In this document: positions 18,509 to 34,685 of the stretch, in pieces
How positions within the stretch are numbered: position 1 is the first letter of the stretch
Layout: every line of letters starts with the position of its first letter
Origin: Eubacteriales bacterium
GTDB lineage: Bacteria > Bacillota > Clostridia > Oscillospirales > CAG-272
Assembly: GCA_045127235.1 (NCBI GenBank)
Contig: JBGVPY010000065.1
Span: 5,546-69,545, forward strand
Reading direction: 5' to 3'
Length of the DNA: 64,000 nt
The notes under the pieces: model-generated
What the model was told of the DNA's origin: nothing
Databases searched by the model: none
The model's input: only the letters and a program-made list of their open reading frames with translations
Translations under genes and position numbers: made by a program

Positions 18509-18685
18509 ATGGCTAATGAAATAAATTGGCAAGCGTTATCAAGTGAAGAGAAGAAAAAACAGTTGTTTTTAAGTCAAAAAGCAACACTTGATTCTTTTCT
18601 TGAAAGAGGTGCAATTAGTCAAGCACAATACGATAAAAGTTATGGCGACTTAAAAGTTAAAATGGGTTTTGATAAGGAGATTTAA
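18509..18685 (+). CDS. small hypothetical protein (58 aa) preceding hsdM
   Basis: ATG 18509 follows GGAG. The stop lies 1 nt before the hsdM ATG. Confidence 0.5.
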   Translation: MANEINWQALSSEEKKKQLFLSQKATLDSFLERGAISQAQYDKSYGDLKVKMGFDKEI

Positions 18686-18686
18686 A

Positions 18687-20183
18687 ATGATAACAGGTGA
18701 ATTAAAGTCAAAAATTGATAAAATTTGGGACACGATTTGGACGGGCGGTATTGCATCCCCGATAACTGTATTGGAGCAAATTACTTATTTGCTTTTTATG
18801 AAATTGCTTGATGATAATGAAACGAAAAAAGAAGGTAATGCGAGAGCTTTAGGAATTACATATAAAAGCAAGGTGTTTCTTGAAGGCGAGTATTGTCCTA
18901 ATGATGATGGCAATATGAAAATACCATATTCTGACCTTCGTTGGAGCAAATTTCATAATGACGAACCAAGTGTTATGATGGAAACTGTTCGTAATTATGT
19001 TTTCCCATTTATCAAGACTGTAAACGGTGATGGAAAAGATACTGCATTTTCACGTTTTATGTCTGACGCTGTATTTCTTATTACAACACCAAAGGTGTTG
19101 GCGGTTTGCGTTGATACATTAAACGAAATTGACACAAGTAATAAAGACATAATGGGCGACGTTTACGAATATTGTCTTTATAAAATGTCATCAGCAGGAA
19201 CTTTAGGTCAGTTTAGAACACCACGCCATATCGTTGATATGATGGTGGCTCTTATGCAGCCAAAGGTAAATGATAAAATTCTCGACCCAGCTATGGGAAG
19301 TGCGGGATTCCTTTTAGGTTGTGCTAAGTATTTACAGGAAAACAATTCTAAAGACCTTATGCGTAAGGATGTGGCACAGCACTATAATACAACAATGTTC
19401 AATGGATTTGATACAGATCCATCTATGCTTCGTATCGGTGCTATGAATATGTTACTTCACGGTGTAGAAGAGCCTAATATTGCAAGACAGGACTCTTTGT
19501 CTGATGATAATACGATAAGAAATGAATATTCATTGATAATGGCTAACCCACCATTTAAGGGTAGCGTATTTGAAGAAGATATTAGCAAAGATATCTTGTC
19601 GCTTTGCAAAACAAAGAAAACGGAACTTCTATTCCTTTCTCTTTTCGTTAAATCATTAAAGATAGGTGGCAGATGTGCTTGTATCGTTCCTGATGGCGTA
19701 TTATTTGGTTCTTCAACAGCTCATAAATCTATTAGAAAAGAACTGATTGAAAATAATAAATTGTTGGCAGTTATATCAATGCCTTCTGGTGTATTTAAAC
19801 CATACGCAGGCGTTTCAACAGCTATTTTAATATTCGCCAAAGACCCTGTTGGAACAGATAAAGTTTGGTTTTATGATATGCAAGCAGATGGTCTTAGCCT
19901 TGATGATAAGAGAAGCCCTGTTAACGAGAATGATATTCCTGATATTATTGCTCGATACCACAACCTTACAGCTGAAGAAAGTCGTGAGCGTACCGAAAAG
20001 AGTTTCTTTGTTTCCAAGCAAGAAATCGTTGATAATGATTATGACCTATCCATCAATAAATATAAAAAAACTGAATATGTTGCTGTAGAGTATCCTTCTT
20101 CTGAGGAAATCATGGATAAACTTGATGCTATCGAGGAGAAAGTTATAACCGGATTAAAACAATTACGAGGAATGTTAAAATGA
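18687..20183 (+). CDS. hsdM: Type I restriction-modification methyltransferase subunit
   Basis: Motif I LDPAMGSAGFLL, motif IV IMANPPFKGS. AAGGAG RBS. Confidence 0.92.
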   Translation: MITGELKSKIDKIWDTIWTGGIASPITVLEQITYLLFMKLLDDNETKKEGNARALGITYKSKVFLEGEYCPNDDGNMKIPYSDLRWSKFHNDEPSVMMETVRNYVFPFIKTVNGDGKDTAFSRFMSDAVFLITTPKVLAVCVDTLNEIDTSNKDIMGDVYEYCLYKMSSAGTLGQFRTPRHIVDMMVALMQPKVNDKILDPAMGSAGFLLGCAKYLQENNSKDLMRKDVAQHYNTTMFNGFDTDPSMLRIGAMNMLLHGVEEPNIARQDSLSDDNTIRNEYSLIMANPPFKGSVFEEDISKDILSLCKTKKTELLFLSLFVKSLKIGGRCACIVPDGVLFGSSTAHKSIRKELIENNKLLAVISMPSGVFKPYAGVSTAILIFAKDPVGTDKVWFYDMQADGLSLDDKRSPVNENDIPDIIARYHNLTAEESRERTEKSFFVSKQEIVDNDYDLSINKYKKTEYVAVEYPSSEEIMDKLDAIEEKVITGLKQLRGMLK

Positions 20184-21376
20184 AAAAATATTCATTTAGA
20201 GAATTAGTAGTGGATGCCCGAACAGGATTGAACCCTCGTAAAAATTTCACTCTTGGTAACGGAAGCAATTATTATATAACGATTAAAGATATTCATGATG
20301 GTAAAATTATAATTACCGACAAAACCGATCGCATTAACGATGAAGCCATCGCTATGATTAAGAAGCGTTCAAGGATTAAAAATGGCGATATCTTATTTAC
20401 AAGCATCGGTCGCATAGGCGAGACCGCTATTGTAATCGACAAAAACGACACATGGGATGTCAACGAATCGGTATTCATCTTTACACTTGATACAAAAATA
20501 ATAACTCAAGAGTATTTTTGTGCGTTAATGCTTTCTAAAAGTGTTCAAGATAAACTTCAAAGGGATAGTTCTGGTTCAACGTTCAAAAGCATCAAGATGA
20601 ATCAACTTGAGAAAATGGAATTTTTTATACCTTCTGTTGATGTACAGATTGAAATTACTCAAAAATTGAACCAAATCAAGGAGTTGATTTTGGCTAGACA
20701 AGAACAGATTGCATTGCATGATGATTTAATAAAATCCCGATTTATCGAGATGTTTGGTGATCCAATATTAAATCCATACAATTGGAATATTGTTAACATT
20801 ACTGAAGTGGTGGGTGGCAAGGTAACAAATGGGTTCTTTGCTAAGCGAGATGAGTACACAGAAAACGGAAATGTCAAAGTTTTGGGAGTAGCCAATATAG
20901 TAAACAGAATGTATTCTAATGTTGCGGATCTGCCGAGAACAAACGGAACTGCATCAGACATTCAAAAATTTGAAGTTCGCTATGGAGATATGCTTTTCTG
21001 CCGTTCATCACTTGTAGCAGAAGGTATAGGTAAAGCTTCTATCGTTCCACACGATGTGCCACCAAAGACATTATTCGAATGTCATGTGATACGATTGCCG
21101 TTAGACTTAAACAAATGTGTACCTGAGTTCATGCAGGTATTAAGCACAACGGATTATTTTAGAAACCAAGTCATAGCACAATCAAAAACGGCTACAATGA
21201 CTACAATTGGTCAAGATGGAATATTAAAAACAATGATCATTTTGCCACCAATAGAAAAACAAAAGCAATTTTTAGATTTCGTTAAACAGACCGACAAATC
21301 GAAATTTGAAATACAAAAAAGCCTTGAACAGCTTGAAATTTTGAAAAAATCTTTAATGCAAAAGTATTTTGGCTAA
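20180..21376 (+). CDS. hsdS: Type I R-M specificity subunit (two TRDs)
   Basis: TRD1 - conserved KSRFIEMFGDP - TRD2 - conserved TDKSKFEIQ. ATGA overlap with hsdM. Confidence 0.9.
   Translation: MKKYSFRELVVDARTGLNPRKNFTLGNGSNYYITIKDIHDGKIIITDKTDRINDEAIAMIKKRSRIKNGDILFTSIGRIGETAIVIDKNDTWDVNESVFIFTLDTKIITQEYFCALMLSKSVQDKLQRDSSGSTFKSIKMNQLEKMEFFIPSVDVQIEITQKLNQIKELILARQEQIALHDDLIKSRFIEMFGDPILNPYNWNIVNITEVVGGKVTNGFFAKRDEYTENGNVKVLGVANIVNRMYSNVADLPRTNGTASDIQKFEVRYGDMLFCRSSLVAEGIGKASIVPHDVPPKTLFECHVIRLPLDLNKCVPEFMQVLSTTDYFRNQVIAQSKTATMTTIGQDGILKTMIILPPIEKQKQFLDFVKQTDKSKFEIQKSLEQLEILKKSLMQKYFG
20735..20757 (+). repeat. 23-bp conserved hsdS core repeat, copy 1
   Basis: tcccgatttatcgagatgtttgg, identical at 22432-22454 and 23485-23507, all in direct orientation. 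Confidence 0.9.
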
Positions 21377-21428
21377 AAATAGTGGTGTAGGATGTTGGTA
21401 TATTCTAAAAATTAAGGAGTATACCAAC

Positions 21429-22424
21429 ATGAAAAACACAATTATTACTGATATTGAGCAAGGAATGCAAGGATTTCTTGACAATGCACAAATGAAAAAG
21501 CTTCACGAGATACTTACACATGCACTTTTTGGAGTTGAAATTGTTAAAACAGAAGAATTTTCCGAGAATAGCGAGGATTTTGATAATCAAACCTTGCTCA
21601 CAACCTTCCTTTCAGCTAAAAAAGTCGAGGGATGTAGTGAAAAAACATTAAAATACTATAAAGCTACTATTGAAAGAATGTTTGTTGATATTAAAATAAG
21701 CGTTTCCCATATAACGACAGACGATTTGAGAGAATACCTTGCTAATTATCAGCAAATAAACGATTGCAGTAAAGCAAACATTGATAATATTAGGCGCATT
21801 CTTTCAAGTTTTTTTGCGTGGCTTGAAGATGAAAATTACATATTGAAAAGCCCTGTTCGTAGAATCCATAAAATACGGACTACGAAAACAGTAAAAGAAA
21901 CATATACAGATGAGGCTCTTGAACAAATGCGAGATGCTTGTACTAATTTGCGAGATCTTGCACTAATAGACTTGCTATCTTCTACCGGAATGCGTGTTGG
22001 CGAGCTTGTAAAACTCAATATTTCTGATATAGATTTTGATAACAGAGAGTGTATAGTTTTTGGAAAAGGAAGCAAAGAACGTCCTGTTTATTTTGATGCA
22101 CGAACAAAAATACATTTGAAAAATTACGTTCAAAGTAGGAACGACGATAATCCTGCCTTGTTTGTTTCGCTTTTAAAACCATACAACCGCCTTGAAATAA
22201 GTGGTGTGGAAATCAGGATGCGACAGCTCGGAAGAGCGTTAGGAATAGATAAAGTTCATCCGCATAAGTTTCGAAGAACCCTTGCAACAAGAGCTATTGA
22301 CAAGGGAATGCCCATAGAACAGGTTCAACAATTGCTTGGACACGCCAAAATTGATACTACAATGCAATATGCAATGGTTAGTCAAAACAACGTAAAACTT
22401 TCGCACCGAAAATATATCGGTTGA
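21429..22424 (+). CDS. tyrosine site-specific recombinase (XerC/D-like) embedded in the hsd locus
   Basis: HPHKFRRTLATRAID...LLGHAKIDTTMQYA (HxxR...H...Y). AAGGAG RBS. A 10-bp hairpin at 21393-21429 spans the RBS and start. Confidence 0.88.
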   Translation: MKNTIITDIEQGMQGFLDNAQMKKLHEILTHALFGVEIVKTEEFSENSEDFDNQTLLTTFLSAKKVEGCSEKTLKYYKATIERMFVDIKISVSHITTDDLREYLANYQQINDCSKANIDNIRRILSSFFAWLEDENYILKSPVRRIHKIRTTKTVKETYTDEALEQMRDACTNLRDLALIDLLSSTGMRVGELVKLNISDIDFDNRECIVFGKGSKERPVYFDARTKIHLKNYVQSRNDDNPALFVSLLKPYNRLEISGVEIRMRQLGRALGIDKVHPHKFRRTLATRAIDKGMPIEQVQQLLGHAKIDTTMQYAMVSQNNVKLSHRKYIG

Positions 22425-22431
22425 TTTCAAA

Positions 22432-22454
22432 TCCCGATTTATCGAGATGTTTGG
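22432..22454 (+). repeat. 23-bp conserved hsdS core repeat, copy 2
   Basis: Identical 23-mer beginning 8 nt after the recombinase stop. Confidence 0.9.
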
Positions 22455-23010
22455 AGAGTGCGAGAATACAGTGCGTCTTGGTGATTGTTGTGAAGTTCAT
22501 GCAAGAATTGGATGGCAAGCACTAACAAGAGATGAACATATGAAAACGGGCGAATATATGCTTGTAACGGGAACGGATTTTAAAGATGGAGAAGTCAACT
22601 ACTCAACGTGTGTATATGTTGCTAAAGAACGGTATGAAATGGATAAACACATTATTTTAAGAAATGATGATGTGCTTATAACGAAAGATGGTACGATTGG
22701 TAAGGTAGCGATAGTTCATAACCTTCCTAAACCTGCGACTTTAAATGCAGGTGTATTTGTCGTAAGGCCTGACGAAATATTTAATAAAGAATATATTGCA
22801 AATGTTTTCAAAGGTCCATTATTTAGCGATTATGTAGAAGCGTCTAAAACGGGTGCGACAATAAAACACTTGAATCAAAAACACTTAGTAGAGTTTATGA
22901 TTCCTGTGCCTTCCTTAGAAGAGCAAGAAGCGTTTTCTCAATTTATAAAACGCATCGACAAATCGAAATATCATGGTGAATTCGCCTACAGATCGGAGGT
23001 AGCAGCATGA
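22447..23010 (+). CDS. half-size hsdS cassette (single TRD, no N-terminal TRD or independent start)
   Basis: The frame is open from 22396 and reads FKSRFIEMFGE. The only start is the Met inside that conserved repeat. It ends with the conserved IDKSKY. Confidence 0.7.
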   Translation: MFGECENTVRLGDCCEVHARIGWQALTRDEHMKTGEYMLVTGTDFKDGEVNYSTCVYVAKERYEMDKHIILRNDDVLITKDGTIGKVAIVHNLPKPATLNAGVFVVRPDEIFNKEYIANVFKGPLFSDYVEASKTGATIKHLNQKHLVEFMIPVPSLEEQEAFSQFIKRIDKSKYHGEFAYRSEVAA

Positions 23011-24098
23011 TAAATGAAAAGCTATTTACGGAATTGTACACGGATATAACCAAGAAAGCAACAAAAATTCCTCAAGAAAACTATCTTGACGAGGGAAACT
23101 ATCCTATTGTAGACCAAGGAAAAGGACAAATTGCAGGTCGTTGGAATGAAGCGGAAGGTTTGTGTGTCGAAATACCAGCTATAATCTTTGGTGATCATAC
23201 ACGAACTATTAAATATATTGACGAGCCGTTCTTCATTGGAGCAGATGGTGTAAAAGTTCTACGTCCAACAAACCAAGCGGATAATCCCAAGTATTACTAT
23301 TATGCTTTACAAGCGGCAAGAATTCCGAATTTAGGGTACAGTAGGCACTTTAAGGTTGTAAAAGAACTGATGATTAGGGTGTACACTCGTGCAGATCAAG
23401 ACCAAATTGTTTCAATCCTTGAAAAAATAGATGAAGTTATCGAAATCCGTCAAGCCGAGTTGTTGGCTATAGAACAGCTCGTCAAGTCCCGATTTATCGA
23501 GATGTTTGGCTCAACAGGAAAACAAGTTCCGTTGATAGATTATGTTTGGTTTCAAGAAGGTCCGGGTGTTCGTTCTGCTGATTTTACGGAAAAAGGAACA
23601 GTGCTGTTGACAGGCTCAAATATTAACGATAATGAAATATCATTTGGTTATAAAAGTGATAGACACATTTCAAATGAATTGGCATCAGGCAAATATGCTC
23701 ATTTTATGTGTGATAAAGATGATATTTTGGTTGTGTCTTCTGCTATTGACCCTGATAAGTTTGATAAAAAGGTCGTAGTAGTTGGTGTTGATAAGAAATA
23801 CTGTTTAAACACTGGTATTATTAGATTTAAACCTAATAAACAATATTTAACTCTTGGGTATTTTAGAGAGTTTTTAAAAACAGATTATTTTAAGCATCAA
23901 GTGAGCAACGAGATGAGAGGAATTGCTCAAATGCATTTTGGGCCATCACATCTAAAACAGATGACTATTTTACTACCAGACTCGATTGATAGTCAAATTG
24001 AGTTTGACGCATTTATGCAACAAGTCGATAAATCGAAATATTATTGTGTTTTAGCACTAAAAATCATAGAAAAATTACTCGCAGAGGTGAAATTATGA
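23007..24098 (+). CDS. hsdS: second full-length Type I specificity subunit
   Basis: TRD - VKSRFIEMFGS - TRD - VDKSKYY. ATGA overlaps with both neighbours. Confidence 0.85.
   Translation: MINEKLFTELYTDITKKATKIPQENYLDEGNYPIVDQGKGQIAGRWNEAEGLCVEIPAIIFGDHTRTIKYIDEPFFIGADGVKVLRPTNQADNPKYYYYALQAARIPNLGYSRHFKVVKELMIRVYTRADQDQIVSILEKIDEVIEIRQAELLAIEQLVKSRFIEMFGSTGKQVPLIDYVWFQEGPGVRSADFTEKGTVLLTGSNINDNEISFGYKSDRHISNELASGKYAHFMCDKDDILVVSSAIDPDKFDKKVVVVGVDKKYCLNTGIIRFKPNKQYLTLGYFREFLKTDYFKHQVSNEMRGIAQMHFGPSHLKQMTILLPDSIDSQIEFDAFMQQVDKSKYYCVLALKIIEKLLAEVKL
23485..23507 (+). repeat. 23-bp conserved hsdS core repeat, copy 3
   Basis: Identical 23-mer within the second hsdS. Confidence 0.9.
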
Positions 24099-27000
24099 GT
24101 AAATTTGAAATTTTAAACGAAAAAACTGAATATAAGGAGATATTGCGTTTGTGCAATGAGGCAGAAAATGAAGCTAATCCTTCTAATGTAGCATTAAAAT
24201 GTCGAGATGCTCTTAATGGGATAATTGCGTTCATTTATGAAAAAGAAGAAACTTACATGCCTCAATCTGCCACAATGCTTGAACTTATTGACGGAAAAGT
24301 TGTTTCCACCTTTGCACACTATTCTGTTATAATTGATTCTTTGCATTATATTCGTAAACTTGGAATGAATGCACAACACGGTGTTCATATAAAGAAAACT
24401 CAAGCTAATCTTGCACTTGATAACCTCGCTTTCTTTGTTGAATATCTGTATAAGAAAATAGAAAAACCAGACGAAATTAAAAACATTATTTTGCCGAAAT
24501 ATATGAGTGAAGCAGACACTCGTAAAATATATATTGACCTTTATTTAGGCGAAGCAGGTTGGAACGTTATGGAACCGAATACAACAACAAAGCTTGAAAG
24601 TGGCGCTGTTGTTCGTTGTGGTACTGTATATCCTTCTTGTGCTTGTTGTGAAATAAAAGTAGAGGGTTTACCTAATAAATCCGGAATTGGCTTCTGTGAT
24701 TATGTTCTTTATGGCAAGGACGGAAAACCACTTGCCGTTGTAGAGGCAAAAAAGACAAGTGTTGATGCAAATGTTGGTATTGCACAGGTTAAAGAATACG
24801 GAGAATGTATGCGTAAACAATACGGATATATTCCGGTGTTATACTATACAAACGGTTATGAAATTTGGGTTATTGATGGTACTTATCCATCAAGAAGGGT
24901 AATGGCTTTCCACACTCTTGAAGAATTAGCTTACATAATTCAAAAAAGAGATAGAAAAGACATAACTGACCTTACTATAAATGATAAAATTTCGGGCAGA
25001 CCGTATCAAAAAATGGCTATTACAAATATCTGTGAACGTTTTAACGAAAAACAACGTCGTGGGCTTATTGTAATGGCTACAGGAACGGGTAAAACAAGAG
25101 TTTCAATATCTCTTGTTGATGTATTGTTACGCAATAAATGGATTAAAAATGTTTTGTTCCTTGCAGATAGGACAAGTCTTGTAGAGCAGGCATTTAAAAA
25201 CTTCAAGAAGATATTGCCTGATATGAGCTATTGCGTTCTTTCCGATAAATCACTTGCGGATGAACCAAATGCAAGAGTAACATTTTCAACCCACCAAACA
25301 ATGATAAACTATATTGACGCAGAGGACAAGGAATATTCATCTGCACGATTTGATTTGATTATCATTGATGAAGCTCACCGTTCAATATTTAATAAGTACG
25401 GTTCAATATTTAAGTATTTTGACTCCCTTTTGGTAGGTCTTACCGCTACTCCAAAGGAAGAAGTAGATGCTAATACATATCAATTATTTAATTGTGAAAA
25501 TGGAGAGCCTAACTTTGCATATTCATTAGAAGAAGCAGTAAAAGACAAATATCTTGTTCCGTATAAGGTGCAAGCAAGAACAACAAAATTGTTATCTCAC
25601 GGAATAAAATACTCTGATTTATCGCAAAAAGATAAGGATACTATTGAGTCTATTATTGATTTGGGTGGAGTAGAGGACGACTTTGTAATACCTAAAGAAA
25701 CTTTGTTTAAAATTTTCTATAACAAGGACACTTGTAAACGTGTTTTAGAAGATTTAATGCAAAACGGATTAAGAGTTGAAGCTGGTCAAAAGGTAGGTAA
25801 AACAATCATTTTTGCATACAATCATATACACGCTGACTTAATAGTTAAAACCTTCCACGAGGTTTATCCTGCGTATGGTGAGGATTATTGTCAACTCATA
25901 GATAATAAAGTAAAACACGCAAATCGCTTGATTGAAAAATTTGATATGGACGACAACTTTAGAATTGCTGTATCTGTTGATATGCTTGATACAGGTGTTG
26001 ATATTCCTGCGGTTTTAAATCTTGTATTCTTTAAGCCTGTACGTTCTAAAATCAAATTTGTTCAAATGATAGGACGTGGTACTCGTTTGTGCGAAGGATT
26101 AATTGATGGAAATGATAAAACTCATTTCTTGATTTTTGACTATTGTTCAAACTTTGAGTACTTTGACAAGCATCCAGACGGAGCAAACAATCAAAACGGA
26201 AAATCGTTATCTCAAAAATTGTTTGATATTCGTATGAATATTTTAGTTGAACTTCAAAGATACGAACATCAAAGCAACCCTGAACACAAGGAATATTATG
26301 ACGAATTAAAGCAGTATTTGTTTAATAAGGTTCAGGAAATCAAGAAAAATTCTGCCCGTATTTCTGTAAGGGAAGAAATGGCTTATGTTGATAAGTATAT
26401 TGACTATGACAGATGGGCAGCAATATCTCAATTAGCTAATAAAGAAATTCAGTTACATTTAACAAAACTCATAGACAATGAATTGGACCAGAAAAAAGGT
26501 AGCTTGTCATTTGATTTAAGGATGCTTGATATTGAATTATCGGTATTAGCAGAAGGAAATATAGGCAAGGCTATAAAATCTGTGGAAACAATTCGCAGGG
26601 TTTCAAATATTTTGTTAAATGAAGCAGGTTCTATAACAGCAGTAATAAATCAAGCAGAAACACTACAAAAGCTTGTAAGTGTTGAGTTTTGGAAAAATCC
26701 TAAAGTTAAGGATTTGGAAGAAATTCGTGAACAAGTGCGTGAACTGATGCAATATTTACCACCTAAAGTTCCACCAGTAGAAATAGATGTTGAAGATGAA
26801 ACTGAAGATAGTGGATATGATGTATCAGGCTTGATTGATATAAGAACCTATAAGGAAAAAGTAATAGATTATCTTGCTGAAAACACAGATAATGCAACTA
26901 TTAAGAAAATTCAAAATCTTGAGCCTATCAATGCTGAGGATGTAAAAGAGCTTGAAAGAATTTTGTGGACCGAGCTTGGAACAAGAGAAGATTACGAAAG

Positions 27001-27292
27001 TGCAACCGATATTGATAATTTGGCAGTTTTCATTCGTTCTATTGTTGGTATAGAGCAATCCTCTATAAACGAAAAGTTTGGAGAATATTTATCAGGAAAT
27101 ACACTTAATTCTGAGCAACAAGAATTTCTTAAGGCTATTATTGATTATGTTCGTGAAAATGGTGATATCAAGGCGGAAGATTTAATTGAAAAATCTCCAT
27201 TTGACAATTATGATATTGTAACATTGTTTGGTAGTTATGTTCCAATTTTGTTGAATATTGTAAATACGATGCATAATAGTATAGTTGCGTGA
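24095..27292 (+). CDS. hsdR: Type I restriction enzyme R subunit
   Basis: Nuclease motif DYVLYGKDGKPLAVVEAKK, Walker A VMATGTGKTR, DEAH box IIIDEAHRS, QMIGRGTR. ATG 24095 follows GAGGTGA. Confidence 0.92.
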   Translation: MSKFEILNEKTEYKEILRLCNEAENEANPSNVALKCRDALNGIIAFIYEKEETYMPQSATMLELIDGKVVSTFAHYSVIIDSLHYIRKLGMNAQHGVHIKKTQANLALDNLAFFVEYLYKKIEKPDEIKNIILPKYMSEADTRKIYIDLYLGEAGWNVMEPNTTTKLESGAVVRCGTVYPSCACCEIKVEGLPNKSGIGFCDYVLYGKDGKPLAVVEAKKTSVDANVGIAQVKEYGECMRKQYGYIPVLYYTNGYEIWVIDGTYPSRRVMAFHTLEELAYIIQKRDRKDITDLTINDKISGRPYQKMAITNICERFNEKQRRGLIVMATGTGKTRVSISLVDVLLRNKWIKNVLFLADRTSLVEQAFKNFKKILPDMSYCVLSDKSLADEPNARVTFSTHQTMINYIDAEDKEYSSARFDLIIIDEAHRSIFNKYGSIFKYFDSLLVGLTATPKEEVDANTYQLFNCENGEPNFAYSLEEAVKDKYLVPYKVQARTTKLLSHGIKYSDLSQKDKDTIESIIDLGGVEDDFVIPKETLFKIFYNKDTCKRVLEDLMQNGLRVEAGQKVGKTIIFAYNHIHADLIVKTFHEVYPAYGEDYCQLIDNKVKHANRLIEKFDMDDNFRIAVSVDMLDTGVDIPAVLNLVFFKPVRSKIKFVQMIGRGTRLCEGLIDGNDKTHFLIFDYCSNFEYFDKHPDGANNQNGKSLSQKLFDIRMNILVELQRYEHQSNPEHKEYYDELKQYLFNKVQEIKKNSARISVREEMAYVDKYIDYDRWAAISQLANKEIQLHLTKLIDNELDQKKGSLSFDLRMLDIELSVLAEGNIGKAIKSVETIRRVSNILLNEAGSITAVINQAETLQKLVSVEFWKNPKVKDLEEIREQVRELMQYLPPKVPPVEIDVEDETEDSGYDVSGLIDIRTYKEKVIDYLAENTDNATIKKIQNLEPINAEDVKELERILWTELGTREDYESATDIDNLAVFIRSIVGIEQSSINEKFGEYLSGNTLNSEQQEFLKAIIDYVRENGDIKAEDLIEKSPFDNYDIVTLFGSYVPILLNIVNTMHNSIVA

Positions 27293-27346: not shown

Positions 27347-29119
27347 ATGGAACAACAACTTTTTGACACGACACCATTAAAGGTAGGACAGTTACTTGAA
27401 AAAATAGAAACTGGAGAATTAGGTTTGCCAGATTTACAAAGACCTTTTGTTTGGGAAGACTCGAAAGTAAGGGATTTGTTTGACTCAATGATGAAAGGTT
27501 ATCCAATCGGATATTTGATGCTTTGGGAATGTCCTGAATTAGAAAAGAAAAAGTCTATTGGTGTTGAGGCACACAATTACCCCACACCAAAAGAAGTTAT
27601 AATTGACGGACAACAAAGATTAACTTGTCTGTATGCTGTTATTAAAGGAAAGAAAATTTTTGACAAAAAACAGCAAGAGAGGGAAATAGTTATTTCGTAC
27701 AATCCTTTGACAAATATTTTTGAAGTAGGAAATCAATCTACTTTGAGAGATAAACATTGGATATATAATATCAGCAGTGCTTATACCACACCTCAATGGA
27801 AATTTATGAATTCGTATATTTCTACATTGGCGGAAATCCGAAATGCAAAAGGGACTCCTTTAACAAGTGAAGAGGAAACGATAATAGGTGAGAACTTAAC
27901 TGCGTTGTATAATTTGACTCAATTTATTCTACCTGTATTTAATATTAAATCGGATGCTGATGAAGAATCTGTGTCAAATATTTTTGTTAGAGTAAATTCG
28001 GGTGGTGTAAAATTAAAAGAGAATGATTTTATTTTAACCTTGTTATCTTTATATTGGGCAGAGGGCAGAAAACAAATAGAAGAATTTGCACGTCAATCTA
28101 TAACGCCAAGTAAAGAACCAACTTCTTATAATCTTTTGACCGAAGTCGAACCGCAAGATATTGTTAGAGTTATTATTGCATATGGTTTTGATAGAGCAAG
28201 ATTGAAATACGGCTACAAGCTCTTAAGGGGTGCAGACTTTGATAAAAAAGGTGTAGTTGACATATCATTACGTGATAAGAGATTTGATGTTCTTAAAGAA
28301 AAATTACCTGATATTCTAAACATTCATACTTGGCACGAGTTTTTAAAGGCTGTTATGAATGCGGGTTACTTAGGAAAGGAACAGATTTCTTCTGGAACAT
28401 CTGTGTTCTATGCGTATGCTTTTTATCTTATCGCAAAGTACAGATTTAATGCATCTTACAATGAGAATATGTTAATAACATCAAAATGGTTTTACTACAT
28501 ATCTTTAGTTTCATTGTATTCGGGTTCGTTCGAGTCTGTAATGGAAGGTCATTTGAACGTTATAAAAACATTAAATACATTTGACGAATACAAAGAATTC
28601 ATAAACCAAAAGATTAGTGAAAGACTTACAAATGACTATTTTGAATATACACTTGTTGGTTCGGAAGGCTTGGCAGTTTCAGGAAAAGGAAATCCGGCTT
28701 GGAACGCGTATTGTGCTGCACTTAATATTTTAGATAGTCATATATTGTTTTCAAAGGCTACGCTGCTGGTTTCTAAACTTTATGAACCGGGAGTTGATGG
28801 TACAAGAAAATCACTTGAAAAGCATCATTTGTTTCCTAAAGCATATCTCAAAAAATTGGGTTATACTGACAGCAAAATAAATCAGATGGCTAACTATGCT
28901 TATATTGATTGGAAAGACAATGCTGAAATATTAGATGAAGCTCCTTCTGTTTACTATCCAATAATTTGCAAGGGAAGAACAGAAGAAGAAATTATAAAAA
29001 TGGAAGAAGAGAATGCTTTACCAAGAGGTTGGGAGAATATGTCTTATGAAGAATTTCTTGTGAAAAGACGTGTTTTGATGGCGAAAAAGATAAAGGAAGC
29101 ATTTGAAAGGTTGAATTAG
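27347..29119 (+). CDS. GmrSD-like Type IV (modification-dependent) restriction enzyme, DUF262 + DUF1524-type His-Me finger
   Basis: N-terminal LPDLQRPFVWE...IIDGQQRLT (DUF262/ParB-like). C-terminal EKHHLFPKAYL...ANYAYIDWKDN (HNH-like). Confidence 0.8.
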   Translation: MEQQLFDTTPLKVGQLLEKIETGELGLPDLQRPFVWEDSKVRDLFDSMMKGYPIGYLMLWECPELEKKKSIGVEAHNYPTPKEVIIDGQQRLTCLYAVIKGKKIFDKKQQEREIVISYNPLTNIFEVGNQSTLRDKHWIYNISSAYTTPQWKFMNSYISTLAEIRNAKGTPLTSEEETIIGENLTALYNLTQFILPVFNIKSDADEESVSNIFVRVNSGGVKLKENDFILTLLSLYWAEGRKQIEEFARQSITPSKEPTSYNLLTEVEPQDIVRVIIAYGFDRARLKYGYKLLRGADFDKKGVVDISLRDKRFDVLKEKLPDILNIHTWHEFLKAVMNAGYLGKEQISSGTSVFYAYAFYLIAKYRFNASYNENMLITSKWFYYISLVSLYSGSFESVMEGHLNVIKTLNTFDEYKEFINQKISERLTNDYFEYTLVGSEGLAVSGKGNPAWNAYCAALNILDSHILFSKATLLVSKLYEPGVDGTRKSLEKHHLFPKAYLKKLGYTDSKINQMANYAYIDWKDNAEILDEAPSVYYPIICKGRTEEEIIKMEEENALPRGWENMSYEEFLVKRRVLMAKKIKEAFERLN

Positions 29120-29144
29120 CATAACAGGAGAAAGGGGAATAAAG

Positions 29145-29705
29145 ATGGACGAACAAACGAGTTTAATTATAGTTTGTAACGACAAAATGATGGAATACGC
29201 AAATTTTTTAGTTCAACTTATTGGATTGAAAGATGATGGCGAAGAAGTTGTTGGAATAGAAGATGGCTCTGTTTCTGCTGCAATTTGGACTGAAAAGCAG
29301 TATAAGGATAACCTTGCTCAAATTACTTCTGACACACATATTTTGTTTATCGGTAATAGCAAATTAGTAAAATTGCAAGCTGCAAATGTTAAAATTATGT
29401 ATTCACAGTATGGTATGAATTATGGTTGGCTTGGCAAGAGAGCTGTAATGTTTGTTGATGATAAGATGCTTAACAAAGAACAATATGATAAGTTTTTTGA
29501 ATATGCAAAAGATTACGAGCAAAATTTCAATGAGAAAGCACTAATCACTTGGGAAAAAGTTGTTCCATTTATAGGCGGGGTTATTGCAATAGGTGCATCT
29601 GTTGCGAGTGTGATTTTCAAGAAAGATAAGATGCATAATCAACAGTATTCTTGCTTAACAAGAGTGTTGTATATTGAAGGACTAAAGAATTTTTTGGAGG
29701 CTTAA
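29145..29705 (+). CDS. unknown protein: ~140-aa alpha/beta-looking domain + one C-terminal TM
   Basis: Begins 25 nt after the DUF262 gene. TM VVPFIGGVIAIGASVASVIF. No motif recognised. Confidence 0.65.
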   Translation: MDEQTSLIIVCNDKMMEYANFLVQLIGLKDDGEEVVGIEDGSVSAAIWTEKQYKDNLAQITSDTHILFIGNSKLVKLQAANVKIMYSQYGMNYGWLGKRAVMFVDDKMLNKEQYDKFFEYAKDYEQNFNEKALITWEKVVPFIGGVIAIGASVASVIFKKDKMHNQQYSCLTRVLYIEGLKNFLEA

Positions 29706-31265
29706 ATGGAAGGCTTCAACGAAGGGTATAGTTATTTTGCTAAAAATGCAGGTGTTCTCTCTGCTGCTTTTAAGTCTGCTATTGACGGAGAAAAAGGTGC
29801 AATACATAATGATTTTATATCAAAAGCTAATGCAGAAATAGATTCTTTAGTAAAAACTTTAAATACTACATTTGAAGGTCATAAAACTCCAACAGCTCAA
29901 TTAAAAGGTAATGTCGCTGAGCATATCCACGCAAGCTCATTTAATGTAAATGCACACCTTAATCATTCGTCAAGCAGCGCAGAGGTTTTGAAAAGTAATA
30001 AGTATGGTTCTGTTGATATACAGGTAACTTGTGAAGATGGTACAATTAAAAATTTCAGTTTGAAATATGATAAGTCGGGTGGAGAATCTGCGAAACAACA
30101 AGCGATAACCGTTATGGAAAAATTCCACAAATATAAAAGTGCCGGTGGAAAAGAGGACTTAGCAACTTATCTTGAAAAAAGAGGTTATGATGAAGAAACC
30201 GTATATACAGATTTGGTATATTCGGGACAGTATAGAGTAATCCCTAAAGGTCAGCTAACAGAAGCGGTAAGCTGGTTAAAAAGAAAAATTGGAGAGAATG
30301 AATTAACAAGACCTGAACAAGCTGCTCGTTATCGTGAAACGTTAGAAATGCTTGAAACTAAAATAAGTGATAATGCCGGGATTGAGTCTATTGAATTCAC
30401 TAACGAAGAAATGGCAAAAATTGCGGAATTAGCAAAAAAAGGTGATGTAACACGAGAGGATCTTGAGAAACTTGGATTTATTGTTCCTGACGGATATGGA
30501 TTAAAGTATGTGTTGGGGCAGGCTTTTAAAGCAGGTTTATCTGCTGCACTAATTTCTTTGGTGTTAAATGTTGCACCCGAAATATTAAGGGCTATAACAC
30601 ATCTAATTAAAGAAGGATATGTTGATAAAGAACAGTTTAAGAATATTGGTTTTGCCGCTATAAAAGGAGCTTCCGAGGGCTTTGTTACAGGAACTATTTC
30701 TGCAGCAATTACAGGAGCTTGCAAATTAGGATTACTTGGAGAAGCGGCTAAGAACGTAAACGCTTTGATTATTGGAGCGATAACTGTTATTGCATTTAAT
30801 GCGATTAAGAATGCTTATAACGTATCTAAAGGTAAAATTACAAGAACGCAAATGGCAAATGCTCTTGTGAAAGATGTTATTGTTACAGGTTGTTCGTTGG
30901 CTTTAGGAACGGTTTCTCAATATTTTATTCAAATACCTATTTTTGGGTATATGGTAGGTAGCTTTATAGGTTCAATTATAGGCACTTTCACATATGAATT
31001 TGGTTATAAAGGTGTTTTATCTTTATGTGCAAGTACAGGTTTTACGATGTTCGGTTTAGTTGAACAAGATTATACTTTACCAGAAGATGTGATACAATCA
31101 ATCGGTATTAAAGTTTTTGATTATGATAAATTTAATTTCAAAAAATTTGAACTAAAACCGTTTGAAGTTAAGCAATTTTCAGTAAAATCACAGGGAATGA
31201 AAATGTTTGAGATAAAACCATTACGCAGGGGCGTAATAGGAGTGTCAACTATAGGATATGTATAG
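29706..31265 (+). CDS. unknown protein: ~270-aa soluble N-domain + Gly/Ala-rich multi-TM region + short F-x-x-K repeats
   Basis: ATG immediately follows the upstream TAA. TM-like segments AGLSAALISLVLNVA, GTISAAITGACKLGLLG, ALIIGAITVIAFNAI and IPIFGYMVGSFIGSIIGTF. Tail FDYDKFNFKKFELKPFEVKQFSVK. Confidence 0.65.
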   Translation: MEGFNEGYSYFAKNAGVLSAAFKSAIDGEKGAIHNDFISKANAEIDSLVKTLNTTFEGHKTPTAQLKGNVAEHIHASSFNVNAHLNHSSSSAEVLKSNKYGSVDIQVTCEDGTIKNFSLKYDKSGGESAKQQAITVMEKFHKYKSAGGKEDLATYLEKRGYDEETVYTDLVYSGQYRVIPKGQLTEAVSWLKRKIGENELTRPEQAARYRETLEMLETKISDNAGIESIEFTNEEMAKIAELAKKGDVTREDLEKLGFIVPDGYGLKYVLGQAFKAGLSAALISLVLNVAPEILRAITHLIKEGYVDKEQFKNIGFAAIKGASEGFVTGTISAAITGACKLGLLGEAAKNVNALIIGAITVIAFNAIKNAYNVSKGKITRTQMANALVKDVIVTGCSLALGTVSQYFIQIPIFGYMVGSFIGSIIGTFTYEFGYKGVLSLCASTGFTMFGLVEQDYTLPEDVIQSIGIKVFDYDKFNFKKFELKPFEVKQFSVKSQGMKMFEIKPLRRGVIGVSTIGYV

Positions 31266-31309
31266 ATAAAATATTGTTAGATTCGGAAAATTATGAAAGG
31301 AGGACATAT

Positions 31310-31534
31310 TTGATATTTGAAATTTTAGGTGTAATATTAGAAAGCTTTTTTGGAACGATTAAAGGTTTGATACCTGTTATCCCTTCCATTTTAGATTTGA
31401 AAGATACATTAGAACAACTTACACCTATGGGAATGTTGCAAACAGGATTAGCTGCAGTAGGTGTTCCTGCATTAGTTGTAACTATACTTGTTTTTGTTGT
31501 TAAATTTGTAATCAGCAAAATACAGATGAACTAA
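31310..31534 (+). CDS. small two-TM membrane protein (74 aa)
   Basis: TTG start 6 nt after AGGAGG. Hydrophobic segments ILGVILESFFGTIKGLIPVIP and GLAAVGVPALVVTILVFVV. Confidence 0.5.
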   Translation: MIFEILGVILESFFGTIKGLIPVIPSILDLKDTLEQLTPMGMLQTGLAAVGVPALVVTILVFVVKFVISKIQMN

Positions 31535-31570
31535 TAAATAGTTAAGTTATACGTTAACTTACCAAAGTAT

Positions 31571-31603
31571 AAAAAAAGCCATCTCGTTTGAGATGGCTTT
31601 TTT
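31571..31603. terminator. bidirectional intrinsic terminator between convergent blocks
   Basis: A-run, then agccatctc / gagatggct stem (9 bp), then T-run. Confidence 0.85.
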
Positions 31604-32140: not shown

Positions 32141-33463
32141 TTAAGCTGCTTTTAATAATTTCTTTAATTGTTTGTTAGCGTATGGTAGCCAAGTTCCATT
32201 AACATAATTTAATATTTCTTCACTTGGTGTAGAATTATGTTCACCACGAACCTGTAATATTTGATGTCTGGAAAGAGAATATTCAATCGTTACAAGTGGT
32301 GTTTTTGGATGTTCTTTATCCCTTACAAAGAAGATTAAAGTATTTTCATCAACGAATTTTTTATCATAACCCATTCTTCCAACGCAGTGGTGTAAAGTAT
32401 TTCCTTCTTTTTGAAGTTCGTTTGGAGATTTGGCTATAATACAAATAAATGAGCCTTTACATTTTTCCTGTAAAGACTCATATTTTTTCGCAATAATTTT
32501 GAATTGAGCATTAAATTCTTTTCTCGCTTTAGCATCAGCTTTTGCTTTGGCACTTGAATATTCGTCAATTCTTGTATCGTGCCAAAACTTAAAATCGTGA
32601 GGATATCTGTTTTTATCAATGCTCATATCAATACCTAAATAGATGCAGGCATTAAGATAATCTAAGTAACTTCTGTTAGAGGTTTTTTGTGTTTCTATGT
32701 AAGATATGAACTTCTCATAATCACCTTTTTGTTTAAGCATATCTCTAACAGGCTGCATTCCTTCCTCGTGAATGAGTCTTTTTCTTGCTGACTCATAAGA
32801 TTGAGCTTTATCTAAGTCCCAACCTTTTTTATAGGCTAAGAGAATAGCAGTTACATGATAGCCAAAATGTTTTATTCTAAGGCGATTTTTATATAGCCAT
32901 TTGCAAAACTGTTTATCTTTTTTACATTGTCTTAAAAGCATTATGCTCATAGCCCTTGCTTCCAATCCCATTTTTACCAAATATTCAGCTTGAGGGAAGC
33001 GTTCATATACTTTTAAGTATTTGAAAAAATCGCCATAAGGATATTGTTCATAAGCACAGTATTTGTATTCTGGGAATTTGGCTACATATTCTTTGTTTAT
33101 GCAAGGACACCAAATGTGGAAATACTTATCATCTGCCTTTCCCCATTCACCATCTGCATACCAAACTTCACGTCCATAACCTTCATAGAACCAATTTGTT
33201 ACATATCCACCCAACCAAAAGTAGGCAATATCTTTGACATAGCAATCTTTTGAGTGCATAGAGTGAATAACAACCTGTTTGCAAATCCATTTCTTGTATC
33301 TCGATTTAACAGCTACAATAATTTGAACAAGTTCACCGTCATTTTTAGTAAGATAAGAGTAATATCTTGTGTGTCCGTCTTGAGCTTTATAGCTTTCCAA
33401 ATCCTTTTTCTTAATGAGATTTAATATATATTTTGGGATTGGCTTAATTTTCTCAATTTTCAT
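32141..33463 (-). CDS. PcfJ-like protein (conjugative-element associated)
   Basis: C-terminal GNTLHHCVGRMGYDKKF...LIFFVRDKEHPKTPLVTIEY is PcfJ-like from memory. The start at 33463 lies 8 nt after GGAGGG. Confidence 0.55.
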   Translation of the reverse strand: MKIEKIKPIPKYILNLIKKKDLESYKAQDGHTRYYSYLTKNDGELVQIIVAVKSRYKKWICKQVVIHSMHSKDCYVKDIAYFWLGGYVTNWFYEGYGREVWYADGEWGKADDKYFHIWCPCINKEYVAKFPEYKYCAYEQYPYGDFFKYLKVYERFPQAEYLVKMGLEARAMSIMLLRQCKKDKQFCKWLYKNRLRIKHFGYHVTAILLAYKKGWDLDKAQSYESARKRLIHEEGMQPVRDMLKQKGDYEKFISYIETQKTSNRSYLDYLNACIYLGIDMSIDKNRYPHDFKFWHDTRIDEYSSAKAKADAKARKEFNAQFKIIAKKYESLQEKCKGSFICIIAKSPNELQKEGNTLHHCVGRMGYDKKFVDENTLIFFVRDKEHPKTPLVTIEYSLSRHQILQVRGEHNSTPSEEILNYVNGTWLPYANKQLKKLLKAA

Positions 33464-33464
33464 T

Positions 33465-34685
33465 TTAACAACCCTCCAAGTTTTCCATTCCAAACATTTC
33501 TGCTAAGATAGCGACGTGTTCAATGCTATATGGCATTTCTTCGTCAACTACCTCACCTGTCTTTTTGTCTATTGTAATTCCTTCAACCTTGACAGGCTCT
33601 ATTTTATCCCTTACCATTTCATTGCCATTTTCACGAATTACAAGGGAATGATTTAACGTTATTTTATTGAAATACGATTCGGCAGCGTGATAAGGGAAAC
33701 CAATCATTGCAAATCTACCGTTGCCTAATTCTCGGCTCGTTATTGTCATGTTAAGTTCATTACCTATCAACTTAGCATTATCACCGAAAATCTCGTAAAA
33801 ATCGCCCAAACGCACGGCTATAACGTGGTCTGGATATCTGTTTTGAATTTCCATATACCTTTCGTAGAGAGAAGGTTTTGGCTTTTCTTCTACAGGTGGT
33901 ATAAATTCTTCTTTTCGTTCAATGGCAAAATCAGGTTCTACTTCTATAATGTAGTCATAGAACCTTTGAATATTTTCATCAAGTGAATAATCGTCGTCAT
34001 ACGGAAAATCGTATTTGCGAATAATTCCTACGTTTGTAGCGGGCCCTGCGTACATTATTTGTTTTTCATATTCAAGGAAGAAGCAGTCGCCACTTGGAAA
34101 TCTTAATAAGTTAGATTTTAAGTTTGCTAATGGGTTTATAGGTTCTTCTTCAACAGGTTCTTCCTCAATTATATCGTCCTCTACAGGCTCGATTTTAACA
34201 GCTTCTTCTTTTTCTTCATTATCTGAGCCGTTATTGTCTTTGTCAGTCATAAATATGTCTTCTAAGCCCTCAAACATAGAAATAACTTCGCCCTCTTTCT
34301 TTACAGGTGGCTTAGGTTCAATTTTAACTTCTGGCTTAGGAGTGGTTTTTCTAACGGGTGTAGGCTTTTTATATTCGCTGCCATCCTCGTTATATAAAAT
34401 TCCTTCAATGGAATCTTCTGCAAAGTAATGTATTAACCAACCGAATACAACCTTATCTTCAACCATGGCACTTCTTGCACCTTTTTCAGCCAATTTCTTA
34501 GCTTCTTCTGTTGCAAATGTCATAAATGTTTCAAGTGTCTTTTTGTTTATAAGTGTTTTTCCGTCCTTTTGGATTTTCACACCATTGTTTATTTTTTCAA
34601 TCAGTAATTCACCGGCATTTTCCTCAAGGTATGCTTTAAGAAATTCTTGTTCTTTTGTTTTTGTTTTTATTTCTAATTTGCTCAT
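33465..34685 (-). CDS. fusion protein: N-terminal unknown domain, acidic/Pro-Lys linker, C-terminal MutS domain I-like module
   Basis: RYPDHVIAVRLGDFYEIFGDNAKLIGNELNMTITSR...MIGFPYHAAESYFNKI parallels the MutS N-terminus (YPD..LF.R.GDFYE.F..DA...LT.R...M.G.PYHA...Y). No ATPase domain. Confidence 0.7.
   Translation of the reverse strand: MSKLEIKTKTKEQEFLKAYLEENAGELLIEKINNGVKIQKDGKTLINKKTLETFMTFATEEAKKLAEKGARSAMVEDKVVFGWLIHYFAEDSIEGILYNEDGSEYKKPTPVRKTTPKPEVKIEPKPPVKKEGEVISMFEGLEDIFMTDKDNNGSDNEEKEEAVKIEPVEDDIIEEEPVEEEPINPLANLKSNLLRFPSGDCFFLEYEKQIMYAGPATNVGIIRKYDFPYDDDYSLDENIQRFYDYIIEVEPDFAIERKEEFIPPVEEKPKPSLYERYMEIQNRYPDHVIAVRLGDFYEIFGDNAKLIGNELNMTITSRELGNGRFAMIGFPYHAAESYFNKITLNHSLVIRENGNEMVRDKIEPVKVEGITIDKKTGEVVDEEMPYSIEHVAILAEMFGMENLEGC

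Follow-up and report, generated by a model that had tools for sequence, protein, structure and literature searches.

A translationally coupled two-gene membrane cassette, widespread in Bacillota, as a candidate defence system

A 64,000-nucleotide stretch of DNA from a Eubacteriales bacterium (Bacillota; Clostridia; Oscillospirales; CAG-272; GenBank assembly GCA_045127235.1, contig JBGVPY010000065.1, positions 5,546 to 69,545 of the forward strand; hereafter the window) carries two adjacent genes, here termed A and B, downstream of a restriction locus. A and B are almost certainly an autonomous, translationally coupled and horizontally mobile two-gene cassette, and the pair is a solid candidate for a new two-gene defence system. 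A first-pass annotation of the window had grouped both genes with a third, 74-residue open reading frame (ORF) into a three-gene membrane module that might work alone or as the effector arm of an upstream DUF262 enzyme; its ORFs are found on the + strand at the positions it gave, according to the ORF listing. The cassette consists of the following parts.

29145-29705, + strand: gene A, 186 amino acids, an ORF with the ribosome-binding site AGGAGAAAGGGG upstream
29696-29708, + strand: A/B junction with GGAGG, TAA and ATG, read directly from the letters
29706-31265, + strand: gene B, 519 amino acids, an ORF

Profiles of A and B were run over 102 related loci from plasmids, phages, species-representative genomes, IMG/VR and metagenome contigs. 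In every locus with DNA available upstream, a homologue of A stood immediately 5' of B; in the co-occurrence check proposed at first pass, the large gene thus always comes with the small one. At L077, L078, L083 and L084 the upstream A is divergent and was recognised by profile comparison. The spacing between the two genes is mostly -4 to +22 nucleotides, with a mode of 3 nucleotides (67 contexts). In the window, the stop codon of A (TAA, 29703-29705) abuts the ATG of B, and the GGAGG serving B lies within the last codons of A. The combination of a ribosome-binding site inside A with a spacer of zero length therefore indicates translational coupling. A 778-residue protein of the representative library, P0323, is a natural A-B fusion: its residues 63-228 match the A profile (E 6e-13) and residues 257-775 the B profile, with a hydrophobic segment (signal peptide or anchor) at the N-terminus ahead of the A-like domain. 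A and the N-terminal domain of B should therefore act in the same compartment.

The conserved unit is A plus B, and the grouping into three genes did not hold. Two features downstream of B are relevant here.

31310-31534, + strand: orphan ORF, 74 amino acids, two hydrophobic segments, preceded by the ribosome-binding site GAAAGGAGGA (rated good), in a variable slot
31572-31603, both strands: bidirectional intrinsic terminator, 14-bp stem with 5 GC pairs and T-runs on either strand

The 74-residue ORF has no homologue in any of the 102 related loci and no usable match in Pfam, NCBIfam or PHROGs. A search of 5.8 billion protein clusters returned a sole relative (97% identity), which belongs to near-identical copies of this element. 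Three such copies are L103-L105, and the gene order GmrSD-A-B-74-residue ORF is seen in L103 and L104. Loci L014-L016 match the window at 99% identity as far as position 31272 and from there carry 1.8 kb with two other genes, compared with 285 bp in the window; homology with L014 returns at 31558, just ahead of the terminator. The segment after B (L014 8387-10194 versus window 31273-31557) is a variable cargo slot, which in L014 contains a 389-residue Cys-rich protein and a 123-residue RNA polymerase alpha-CTD-like protein. A recurrent small hydrophobic third gene after B was considered and rejected, having been present in 7 of 59 contexts. The 74-residue ORF is an unrelated orphan in this slot, outside the conserved module.

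The A-B pair occupies at least 67 distinct neighbourhoods, in Lachnospiraceae, Oscillospiraceae, Streptococcus, Bacteroidales, Fusobacterium, Fibrobacter, Coriobacteriia, Spirochaetales and others. It is also present in plasmids, in seven IMG/VR viral contigs and in phage NatCom_9287; the phage-borne pair has methyltransferases and a restriction enzyme alongside, and the plasmid or mobile settings include a ParAB neighbour and a relaxase neighbour. An exhaustive HMMER search collected 939 clusters of the B family at 50% identity. Megablast searches of plasmid and phage sequences with the region and with its flanks gave no match. In mitis-group Streptococcus the pair sits at one chromosomal site in about 20 genomes, in the order tex, sprT, pspC-domain gene, A, B, ABC transporter (S. 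mitis, S. oralis, S. pneumoniae, S. cristatus, S. halitosis and S. infantis; L004, L005, L029-L036 and others), and the 10 kb to the left and right of it are free of mobile genetic element (MGE) genes. Six further loci (L080, L081, L082, L085, L088 and L095) have the same A-B neighbourhood with common neighbour genes in unrelated metagenome-assembled genomes (MAGs), classified as a Methanomethylophilaceae archaeon, Oscillospiraceae, Senegalimassilia, Alistipes, Fibrobacter and Hallerella. The likeliest explanation is one mobile element or phage binned into unrelated genomes.

Disrupted copies of the cassette were also encountered. In Peptoclostridium, B is broken by an IS3 element (L002 8990-10210), and in four MAGs (L023, L081, L085 and L088) B is split by a frameshift or stop; some of the disrupted A or B copies may be assembly errors. 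Occasional inactivation by insertion sequences or frameshifts fits a costly accessory gene.

The neighbours of the pair were surveyed in the 67 contexts. Within two genes on each side, the commonest Pfam families are ResIII/HsdR (5), GmrSD_N (4+2) and WYL (4, always at position -1), followed by MmeI, YhcG, Mrr, McrB-type AAA_5, Eco57I, BrxL, BrxA, PglZ, LlaJI and AAA_21/15; transfer genes are absent from the commonest families there. A BLAST panel of 24 proteins covering restriction-modification (R-M), bacteriophage exclusion (BREX), Type IV, WYL and YhcG was applied, leaving out WYL and YhcG matches and yielding lower bounds: R-M, BREX or Type IV genes lie at most five genes away in at least 18 of the 67 contexts, or 16 of 50 when contexts with at least six neighbour genes are counted. 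As a background figure, predicted defence systems make up about 0.9-2.4% of the length of streptococcal genomes (PMC11514479). In line with the first-pass annotation, homologues often neighbour established defence genes (Type I, IIG and IV R-M, McrBC, Mrr, GmrSD, BREX and WYL). The association of the pair with defence genes is positive; it amounts to guilt by association, not proof.

A dependence on the DUF262 enzyme is not borne out by these contexts. GmrSD_N/DUF262 lies at most two genes away in only 6 of 67 (four of them upstream and two downstream). The pair is often found by itself, mitis-group streptococci being one example. Because DUF262 is so seldom nearby, we regard the A-B pair as autonomous and not as an effector arm of the DUF262 enzyme, so that the option of a module working alone holds for the pair. 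Homology to a housekeeping or conjugation function, which would have spoken for another role, was not found: the sole match is to NCBIfam TrbC (E 0.063, 12.8 bits against a cut-off of 333). A conjugative entry-exclusion or type IV secretion system component was rejected, as this match is far below the cut-off and transfer genes are not among the commonest neighbour families in the 67 contexts.

Gene A encodes three parts, of which the alpha/beta domain and the last helix are the conserved ones in the family (n = 140 homologues).

N-terminal ~130 amino acids of A: alpha/beta domain of unrecognised fold
Amino acids ~131-161 of A in the window copy: Gly/Ala-rich, hydrophobic, variable linker
C-terminus of A: conserved helix, K-x-QQY-x-CLT-x-x-LY-x-x-GL-x-x-FLE

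The AlphaFold2 (AF2) model of A is confident (pLDDT 82.6, pTM 0.81) and agrees with the alpha/beta appearance noted at first pass: a beta-alpha-beta-alpha-beta-alpha unit and a three-strand meander precede long helices. The single C-terminal transmembrane helix of that annotation is discernible as a hydrophobic stretch in the window copy (KD19 2.25), but across the family this stretch is a linker that varies in both length and composition, ahead of the conserved helix. With this model, Foldseek returned no match at E <= 0.001 in the PDB or BFVD, and by sequence, including the A profile, there was no usable match in Pfam, NCBIfam, PHROGs or the PDB. Weak Pfam matches, tallied over 33 A proteins, gave no consistent family; DUF4190, placed on the Gly-rich linker in 8 of 33, is the sole repeated signal. 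PADLOC LeoBC profiles match 9 of the 33 A proteins (best E 6.8e-4); these matches were put down to the linker, probably through its low complexity. A TIR-like identity, suggested by the beta-alpha-beta start and a 'W-x-E' look, was likewise rejected: no TIR protein is among the PDB and BFVD matches of the confident model, and W48 and E50 are unconserved in the family, with variants such as W-T-P-K and Y-T-P-K.

Gene B is likewise tripartite.

29706-30500, + strand: N-terminal soluble domain of B, amino acids 1-265, no signal peptide
30507-31067, + strand: Gly/Ala/Ser-rich, weakly hydrophobic helical region of B, amino acids ~268-454, 5-6 helices
31026-31265, + strand: C-terminal tail of B with the conserved C-x-x-TGFTMFGLVEQDY-x-LPEDV, F/acidic repeats, the invariant LRRGVIGV-x-x-IGY and the stop codon

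This architecture confirms the soluble domain of about 270 residues (here ~265) followed by Gly/Ala-rich helices and, with A, the arrangement of a small partner beside a Gly-rich membrane protein. The four or five transmembrane helices proposed earlier correspond to five or six Gly/Ala-rich hydrophobic helices, but their hydrophobicity is only weak (KD19 1.0-1.74), and many of their Gly residues are invariant. The tail, described as F-x-x-K-x-F repeats, is indeed F-rich with short repeats, of acidic character; in the alignment the conserved motifs GFTMFGLVEQDY and LRRGVIGV-x-x-IGY flank these repeats. Within the N-domain, an alignment of 64 sequences, which also covers the exported subfamily described below, shows residues E72, D104, K120, Q132 and Y172 to be invariant. 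From N- to C-terminus, the predicted elements run helix (63-85), strand, strand (104-108), strand (114-119), helix, strand, helix, with D104 opening strand 2 and K120 closing strand 3. This order, together with D104, K120 and the helix bearing E72, fits a PD-(D/E)xK layout; the position two before K120 is G or S, and neither sequence searches nor Foldseek gave a significant match.

The proposed fold and sequence checks of the encoded proteins were run for A and B, and neither matches the PDB significantly. The AF2 model of B has a pLDDT of ~65-85 over amino acids 40-260 and is usable for the N-domain only. Against the PDB, Foldseek gave nothing at E <= 0.001 for B; the top matches (E >= 0.09, TM-score below 0.2) are nucleic-acid enzymes (integrase core, EndoMS) and non-significant. 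By sequence, neither the full-length B profile nor the 64-sequence N-domain profile detected anything significant in the PDB, B has no usable match in Pfam, NCBIfam or PHROGs, and a weak-Pfam census of the N-domain over 64 sequences gave no consistent family signal. The Foldseek top matches of the A and B models (glyoxalase/FosB, integrase core and MATE; TM-score below 0.3) were judged to be noise.

The B family comprises two architectures. In the form of about 500 amino acids the tail is always present and A is adjacent; A and the tail co-occur, and A therefore plausibly acts through the tail. The second form, of 550-700 amino acids, is exported: it has a signal peptide and LEA-like repeats and keeps the N-domain and Gly-rich region, but lacks the C-tail. 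It accounts for 16 of the top 150 representative clusters, and Sec or lipoprotein signal peptides were found in 15 of the 16 checked. The sole copy with known context is a 642-residue paralogue on the Butyrivibrio plasmid pCY186 (L001 10823-12751, - strand), which has no A adjacent; tblastn with a member of the exported subfamily added no annotated context. This paralogue lies 1.3 kb from an A-B pair in convergent orientation, has an extra N-terminal region and no C-tail, and is 31% identical over the N-domain and Gly-rich region. We infer that the module formed by these two regions works on either side of the membrane.

The closest catalogued relative is PDC-M09, a cassette (CAS_00055, FAM_02775>>FAM_02807) with 380 RefSeq instances (Payne et al., bioRxiv 10.1101/2024.01.29.577857). 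The PDC set comprises untested candidates proposed by 'guilt-by-embedding' in R-M, BREX or DISARM loci (bioRxiv 10.1101/2024.01.29.577857), and the literature searched contains no characterisation of PDC-M09 or of an equivalent with a name of its own. Window B matches PADLOC PDC-M09B with E 1.3e-8, aligning amino acids 268-429 to profile positions 237-388 of 480; the match recurs in 26 of 27 family members (best 1.6e-18) over profile positions ~205-400 of 480-486. Judged from these alignments, it represents a common, predicted membrane module and not a full-length match. Like A-B, PDC-M09 has two co-oriented genes, the second of ~480 amino acids, and is linked with Type I R-M, BREX or DISARM; the A-B pair agrees with this layout in its effectively invariant adjacency and in the nearby R-M, BREX or Type IV genes noted above. 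In contrast, the N-domain and C-tail of B do not align to PDC-M09B, and no A homologue matches PDC-M09A, for which reason PADLOC would not call A-B here. In the window, PADLOC HEC-05 is matched as well, by the DUF262 protein. The earlier placement outside any described defence family holds in that the genes fall in no curated family, but the membrane region of B does match the candidate PDC-M09B.

Two better-known kinds of system invite comparison by analogy. RexAB of phage lambda has a soluble partner encoded upstream of a membrane protein, is found on mobile elements and prophages, and is proposed to depolarise the membrane. A-B may resemble RexAB and other abortive systems built from a sensor and a membrane effector in layout and carriage, but no likeness in sequence or fold was detected, and B is far larger than RexB, with its conserved 265-residue soluble domain, conserved tail and marginal helices. 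Glycine-zipper toxins that depolarise membranes act in interbacterial competition, for example as pore-forming effectors of type VII or type VI secretion systems. Their Gly/Ala-rich, weakly hydrophobic helices and the exported Sec/lipoprotein subfamily of B suggest a parallel; such a subfamily would be expected of a module able to enter membranes from whichever side the protein is on. In contrast to these toxins, however, no conserved secretion-system or downstream immunity gene accompanies A-B, window B has no export signal, and there is no sign of homology.

The explanation that we favour, tentatively and with slightly less than even confidence, is that A-B is an abortive-type defence against phages or MGEs, with B damaging the membrane and A sensing or restraining it. 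A defence function as such is perhaps somewhat likelier than not having one; permeabilisation of the membrane by B, taken by itself, is perhaps possible though doubtful. The most likely division of labour, which we infer, would have A as a regulator or sensor that binds the tail of B and B as a membrane-damaging effector. In this scheme A would be a cytoplasmic alpha/beta protein that docks on B, plausibly at the conserved C-terminal tail, and would serve as its sensor or brake; B would be a glycine-zipper-type, weakly hydrophobic module that permeabilises the cytoplasmic membrane once released. A more elaborate version, in which two folds unseen in solved structures form a new abortive system, B is a conditional pore-former whose Gly-rich module serves in two forms (exported behind Sec or lipoprotein signals in the sister subfamily, and cytoplasmic here, kept off the membrane by A clamping the tail until infection is sensed), and E72/D104/K120 add an enzymatic or ligand-sensing step, seems to us unlikely in its entirety.

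Several observations weigh against this favoured explanation. In three genomes (L031, L045 and L061) A is split and B intact; B without A is thus not obviously lethal, and the idea of a brake is weakened. By the limited panel, about two thirds of the contexts contain no defence gene, and the fixed streptococcal site could point to a physiological role. Neither A nor B has homology to validated defence proteins, and PDC-M09A was matched neither by 33 A homologues at E <= 0.1 nor by five more from distant loci at E <= 0.01. The invariant E72/D104/K120 mean that the N-domain may be an enzyme, so that membrane damage need not be the effector activity. The AF2 model of B has low confidence in its membrane part, and the positive-inside count would put the N-domain on the outer side of the membrane although B lacks a signal peptide. 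In favour of a toxin-like B, the two-sided module, the marginal hydropathy and the odd positive-inside count would together fit post-translational insertion, as in pore-forming toxins, better than a classical polytopic protein.

Instead of a defence, A-B could be a selfish MGE cassette, namely an addiction pair with B as toxin and A as antidote, or a superinfection- or entry-exclusion complex that blocks DNA entry without killing. Such a role is distinctly unlikely, even though the window element is ICE/IME-like (MobL relaxase, integrases, PcfJ and PcfK), the pair is also carried on plasmids, beside ParAB, beside a relaxase and in phages, its two genes are tightly coupled with one membrane partner, and copies are occasionally disrupted. 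The intact B next to a split A in L031, L045 and L061 would be unexpected for an essential antidote and therefore speaks against a simple toxin-antidote relation. Moreover, the fixed streptococcal site lacks MGE genes on both flanks, known toxin-antitoxin (TA) or exclusion families are not matched, and WYL at position -1 as well as R-M and BREX neighbours are more typical of immunity genes. A type II TA pair in particular was rejected on the split copies of A and on the lack of any TA family match for A or B; TscT, the sole TA name among the matches, falls on the DUF262 protein (E 0.037, 14 bits, cut-off 100). Far less probable still is the original version of three genes co-transcribed with the DUF262 enzyme as its effector arm. 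The single strand, the gaps of 25-44 nucleotides, the lack of a strong internal terminator, the single terminator after the 74-residue ORF and the same gene order in L103 and L104 are compatible with it, but L103-L105 are near-identical copies of one element, L014-L016 carry a 99% identical B followed by other genes in place of the 74-residue ORF, the 5.8 billion protein clusters searched contain no further homologue of that ORF, and DUF262 lies at most two genes away in only 6 of 67 contexts. These sequence comparisons contradict the three-gene, DUF262-dependent version.

The pair might also have a non-defence membrane function in envelope stress, transport or at the cell surface, with its defence neighbours reflecting integration hotspots common to accessory genes. 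The conserved position beside a PspC-domain gene and an ABC transporter in ~20 Streptococcus genomes, the two thirds of contexts in which the limited panel found no defence gene, and the exported paralogues with LEA-like repeats, which look like surface or stress proteins, would be consistent with this. Nevertheless, we consider it improbable: the distribution is patchy across phyla in 67 neighbourhoods, phage copies stand beside methyltransferases and a restriction enzyme, the neighbours are mainly R-M, BREX and Type IV domains without a metabolic theme, and the membrane region of B is related to PDC-M09, which is found embedded in R-M, BREX or DISARM loci. Slightly more improbable is that B is a membrane-tethered enzyme, whose divergent nuclease-like N-domain would act on incoming nucleic acid or an envelope substrate in a non-abortive way, with A as modulator. 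Polar residues invariant across both B subfamilies, a predicted element order that with D104 and K120 recalls PD-(D/E)xK enzymes, the integrase core and EndoMS among the weak Foldseek matches, and the repeated adjacency of restriction genes agree with such an activity. However, these Foldseek matches are non-significant (E >= 0.09, TM-score below 0.2), the residue two before K120 is G or S instead of acidic, the 64-sequence profile gives no PDB or Pfam sequence signal, and export of the same domain in the second subfamily is odd for a nuclease acting on intracellular DNA.

In the window, the A-B cassette is appended to a Type I R-M and BrxU-like locus, whose parts are the following.

18669-20183: hsdM
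20180-21376: hsdS
21369-22424: embedded tyrosine-recombinase-like gene
22447-23010 and 23007-24098: hsdS-like ORFs, between the recombinase-like gene and hsdR
24044-27292, + strand: hsdR, last gene of the Type I R-M locus upstream of the DUF262 gene
27347-29119, + strand: GmrSD/BrxU-like Type IV restriction enzyme with DUF262 N-domain, a neighbouring defence gene outside the A-B module

The Type I R-M locus (18669-27292) looks phase-variable and resembles an hsdS shufflon. The product of 27347-29119 matches Pfam GmrSD_N (PF03235; 1.3e-32 over amino acids 13-232) and PADLOC HEC-05 (7e-40), which is BrxU according to bioRxiv 10.1101/2024.01.29.577857. These likenesses to GmrSD and BrxU are confined to this protein, which adjoins the A-B cassette and is not a member of it. 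Its earlier designation as a DUF262/His-Me-finger enzyme stands for the N-terminal half of the name; a C-terminal DUF1524 domain has no Pfam match at E 0.01 or better, and the His-Me-finger-like motif EKHHLFP...NYAYIDWKDN was picked out by eye at the C-terminus of the translation.

The transcription signals assigned at first pass fared unevenly. The gaps between genes (hsdR-DUF262 54 nucleotides, DUF262-A 25, A-B 0, B-74-residue ORF 44) fall within the 0-55 given, and the bidirectional terminator is strong; it ends the gene array on the + strand and the converging genes on the - strand alike. A strong internal terminator is indeed missing, but weak terminator-like matches occur on the + strand, all within coding sequence. 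The promoter placed at 18445 matches 10 of 12 consensus positions with an extended TG, but promoter-like matches number 66 in the region versus 63.3 in shuffles; as they are equally frequent in shuffled sequence, this match is no evidence of function.

The surrounding element is integrative and mobilisable, resembling integrative and conjugative or integrative and mobilisable elements (ICE/IME-like). It encodes a MobL relaxase, a tyrosine integrase, a serine recombinase, PcfJ, PcfK/MutS_I, a D12 methyltransferase and a 1414-residue STAND-like NTPase. On the - strand at 32141-34685, a PcfJ-like protein (450 amino acids) and a PcfK-like/MutS domain I protein (406 amino acids), whose Pfam families are named after genes of the conjugative plasmid pCF10, converge on the terminator. 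The D12 adenine methyltransferase (648 amino acids, - strand, 50034-51980) adjoins the 1414-residue protein (52205-56449), which has an NPHP3_N/STAND-type NTPase region (Pfam 6.8e-8) and may be an Avs/NLR-like defence gene.

The A-B pair is an unannotated, structurally unmatched and widespread cassette whose nearest catalogue entry, PDC-M09, has one module in common with it. Members of the B family are frequent in Bacillota of the gut and mouth, mitis-group streptococci among them, and extend to Bacteroidota and phages; they lack annotation and a solved relative. If A-B is a defence system, it would add a widespread immunity module for under-studied Gram-positive commensals, assign a function to part of the PADLOC candidate PDC-M09B and provide two new folds for structural work. 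In addition, the split between signal-peptide and A-plus-tail forms would offer a simple handle on how the producer stays safe from a membrane-active module.

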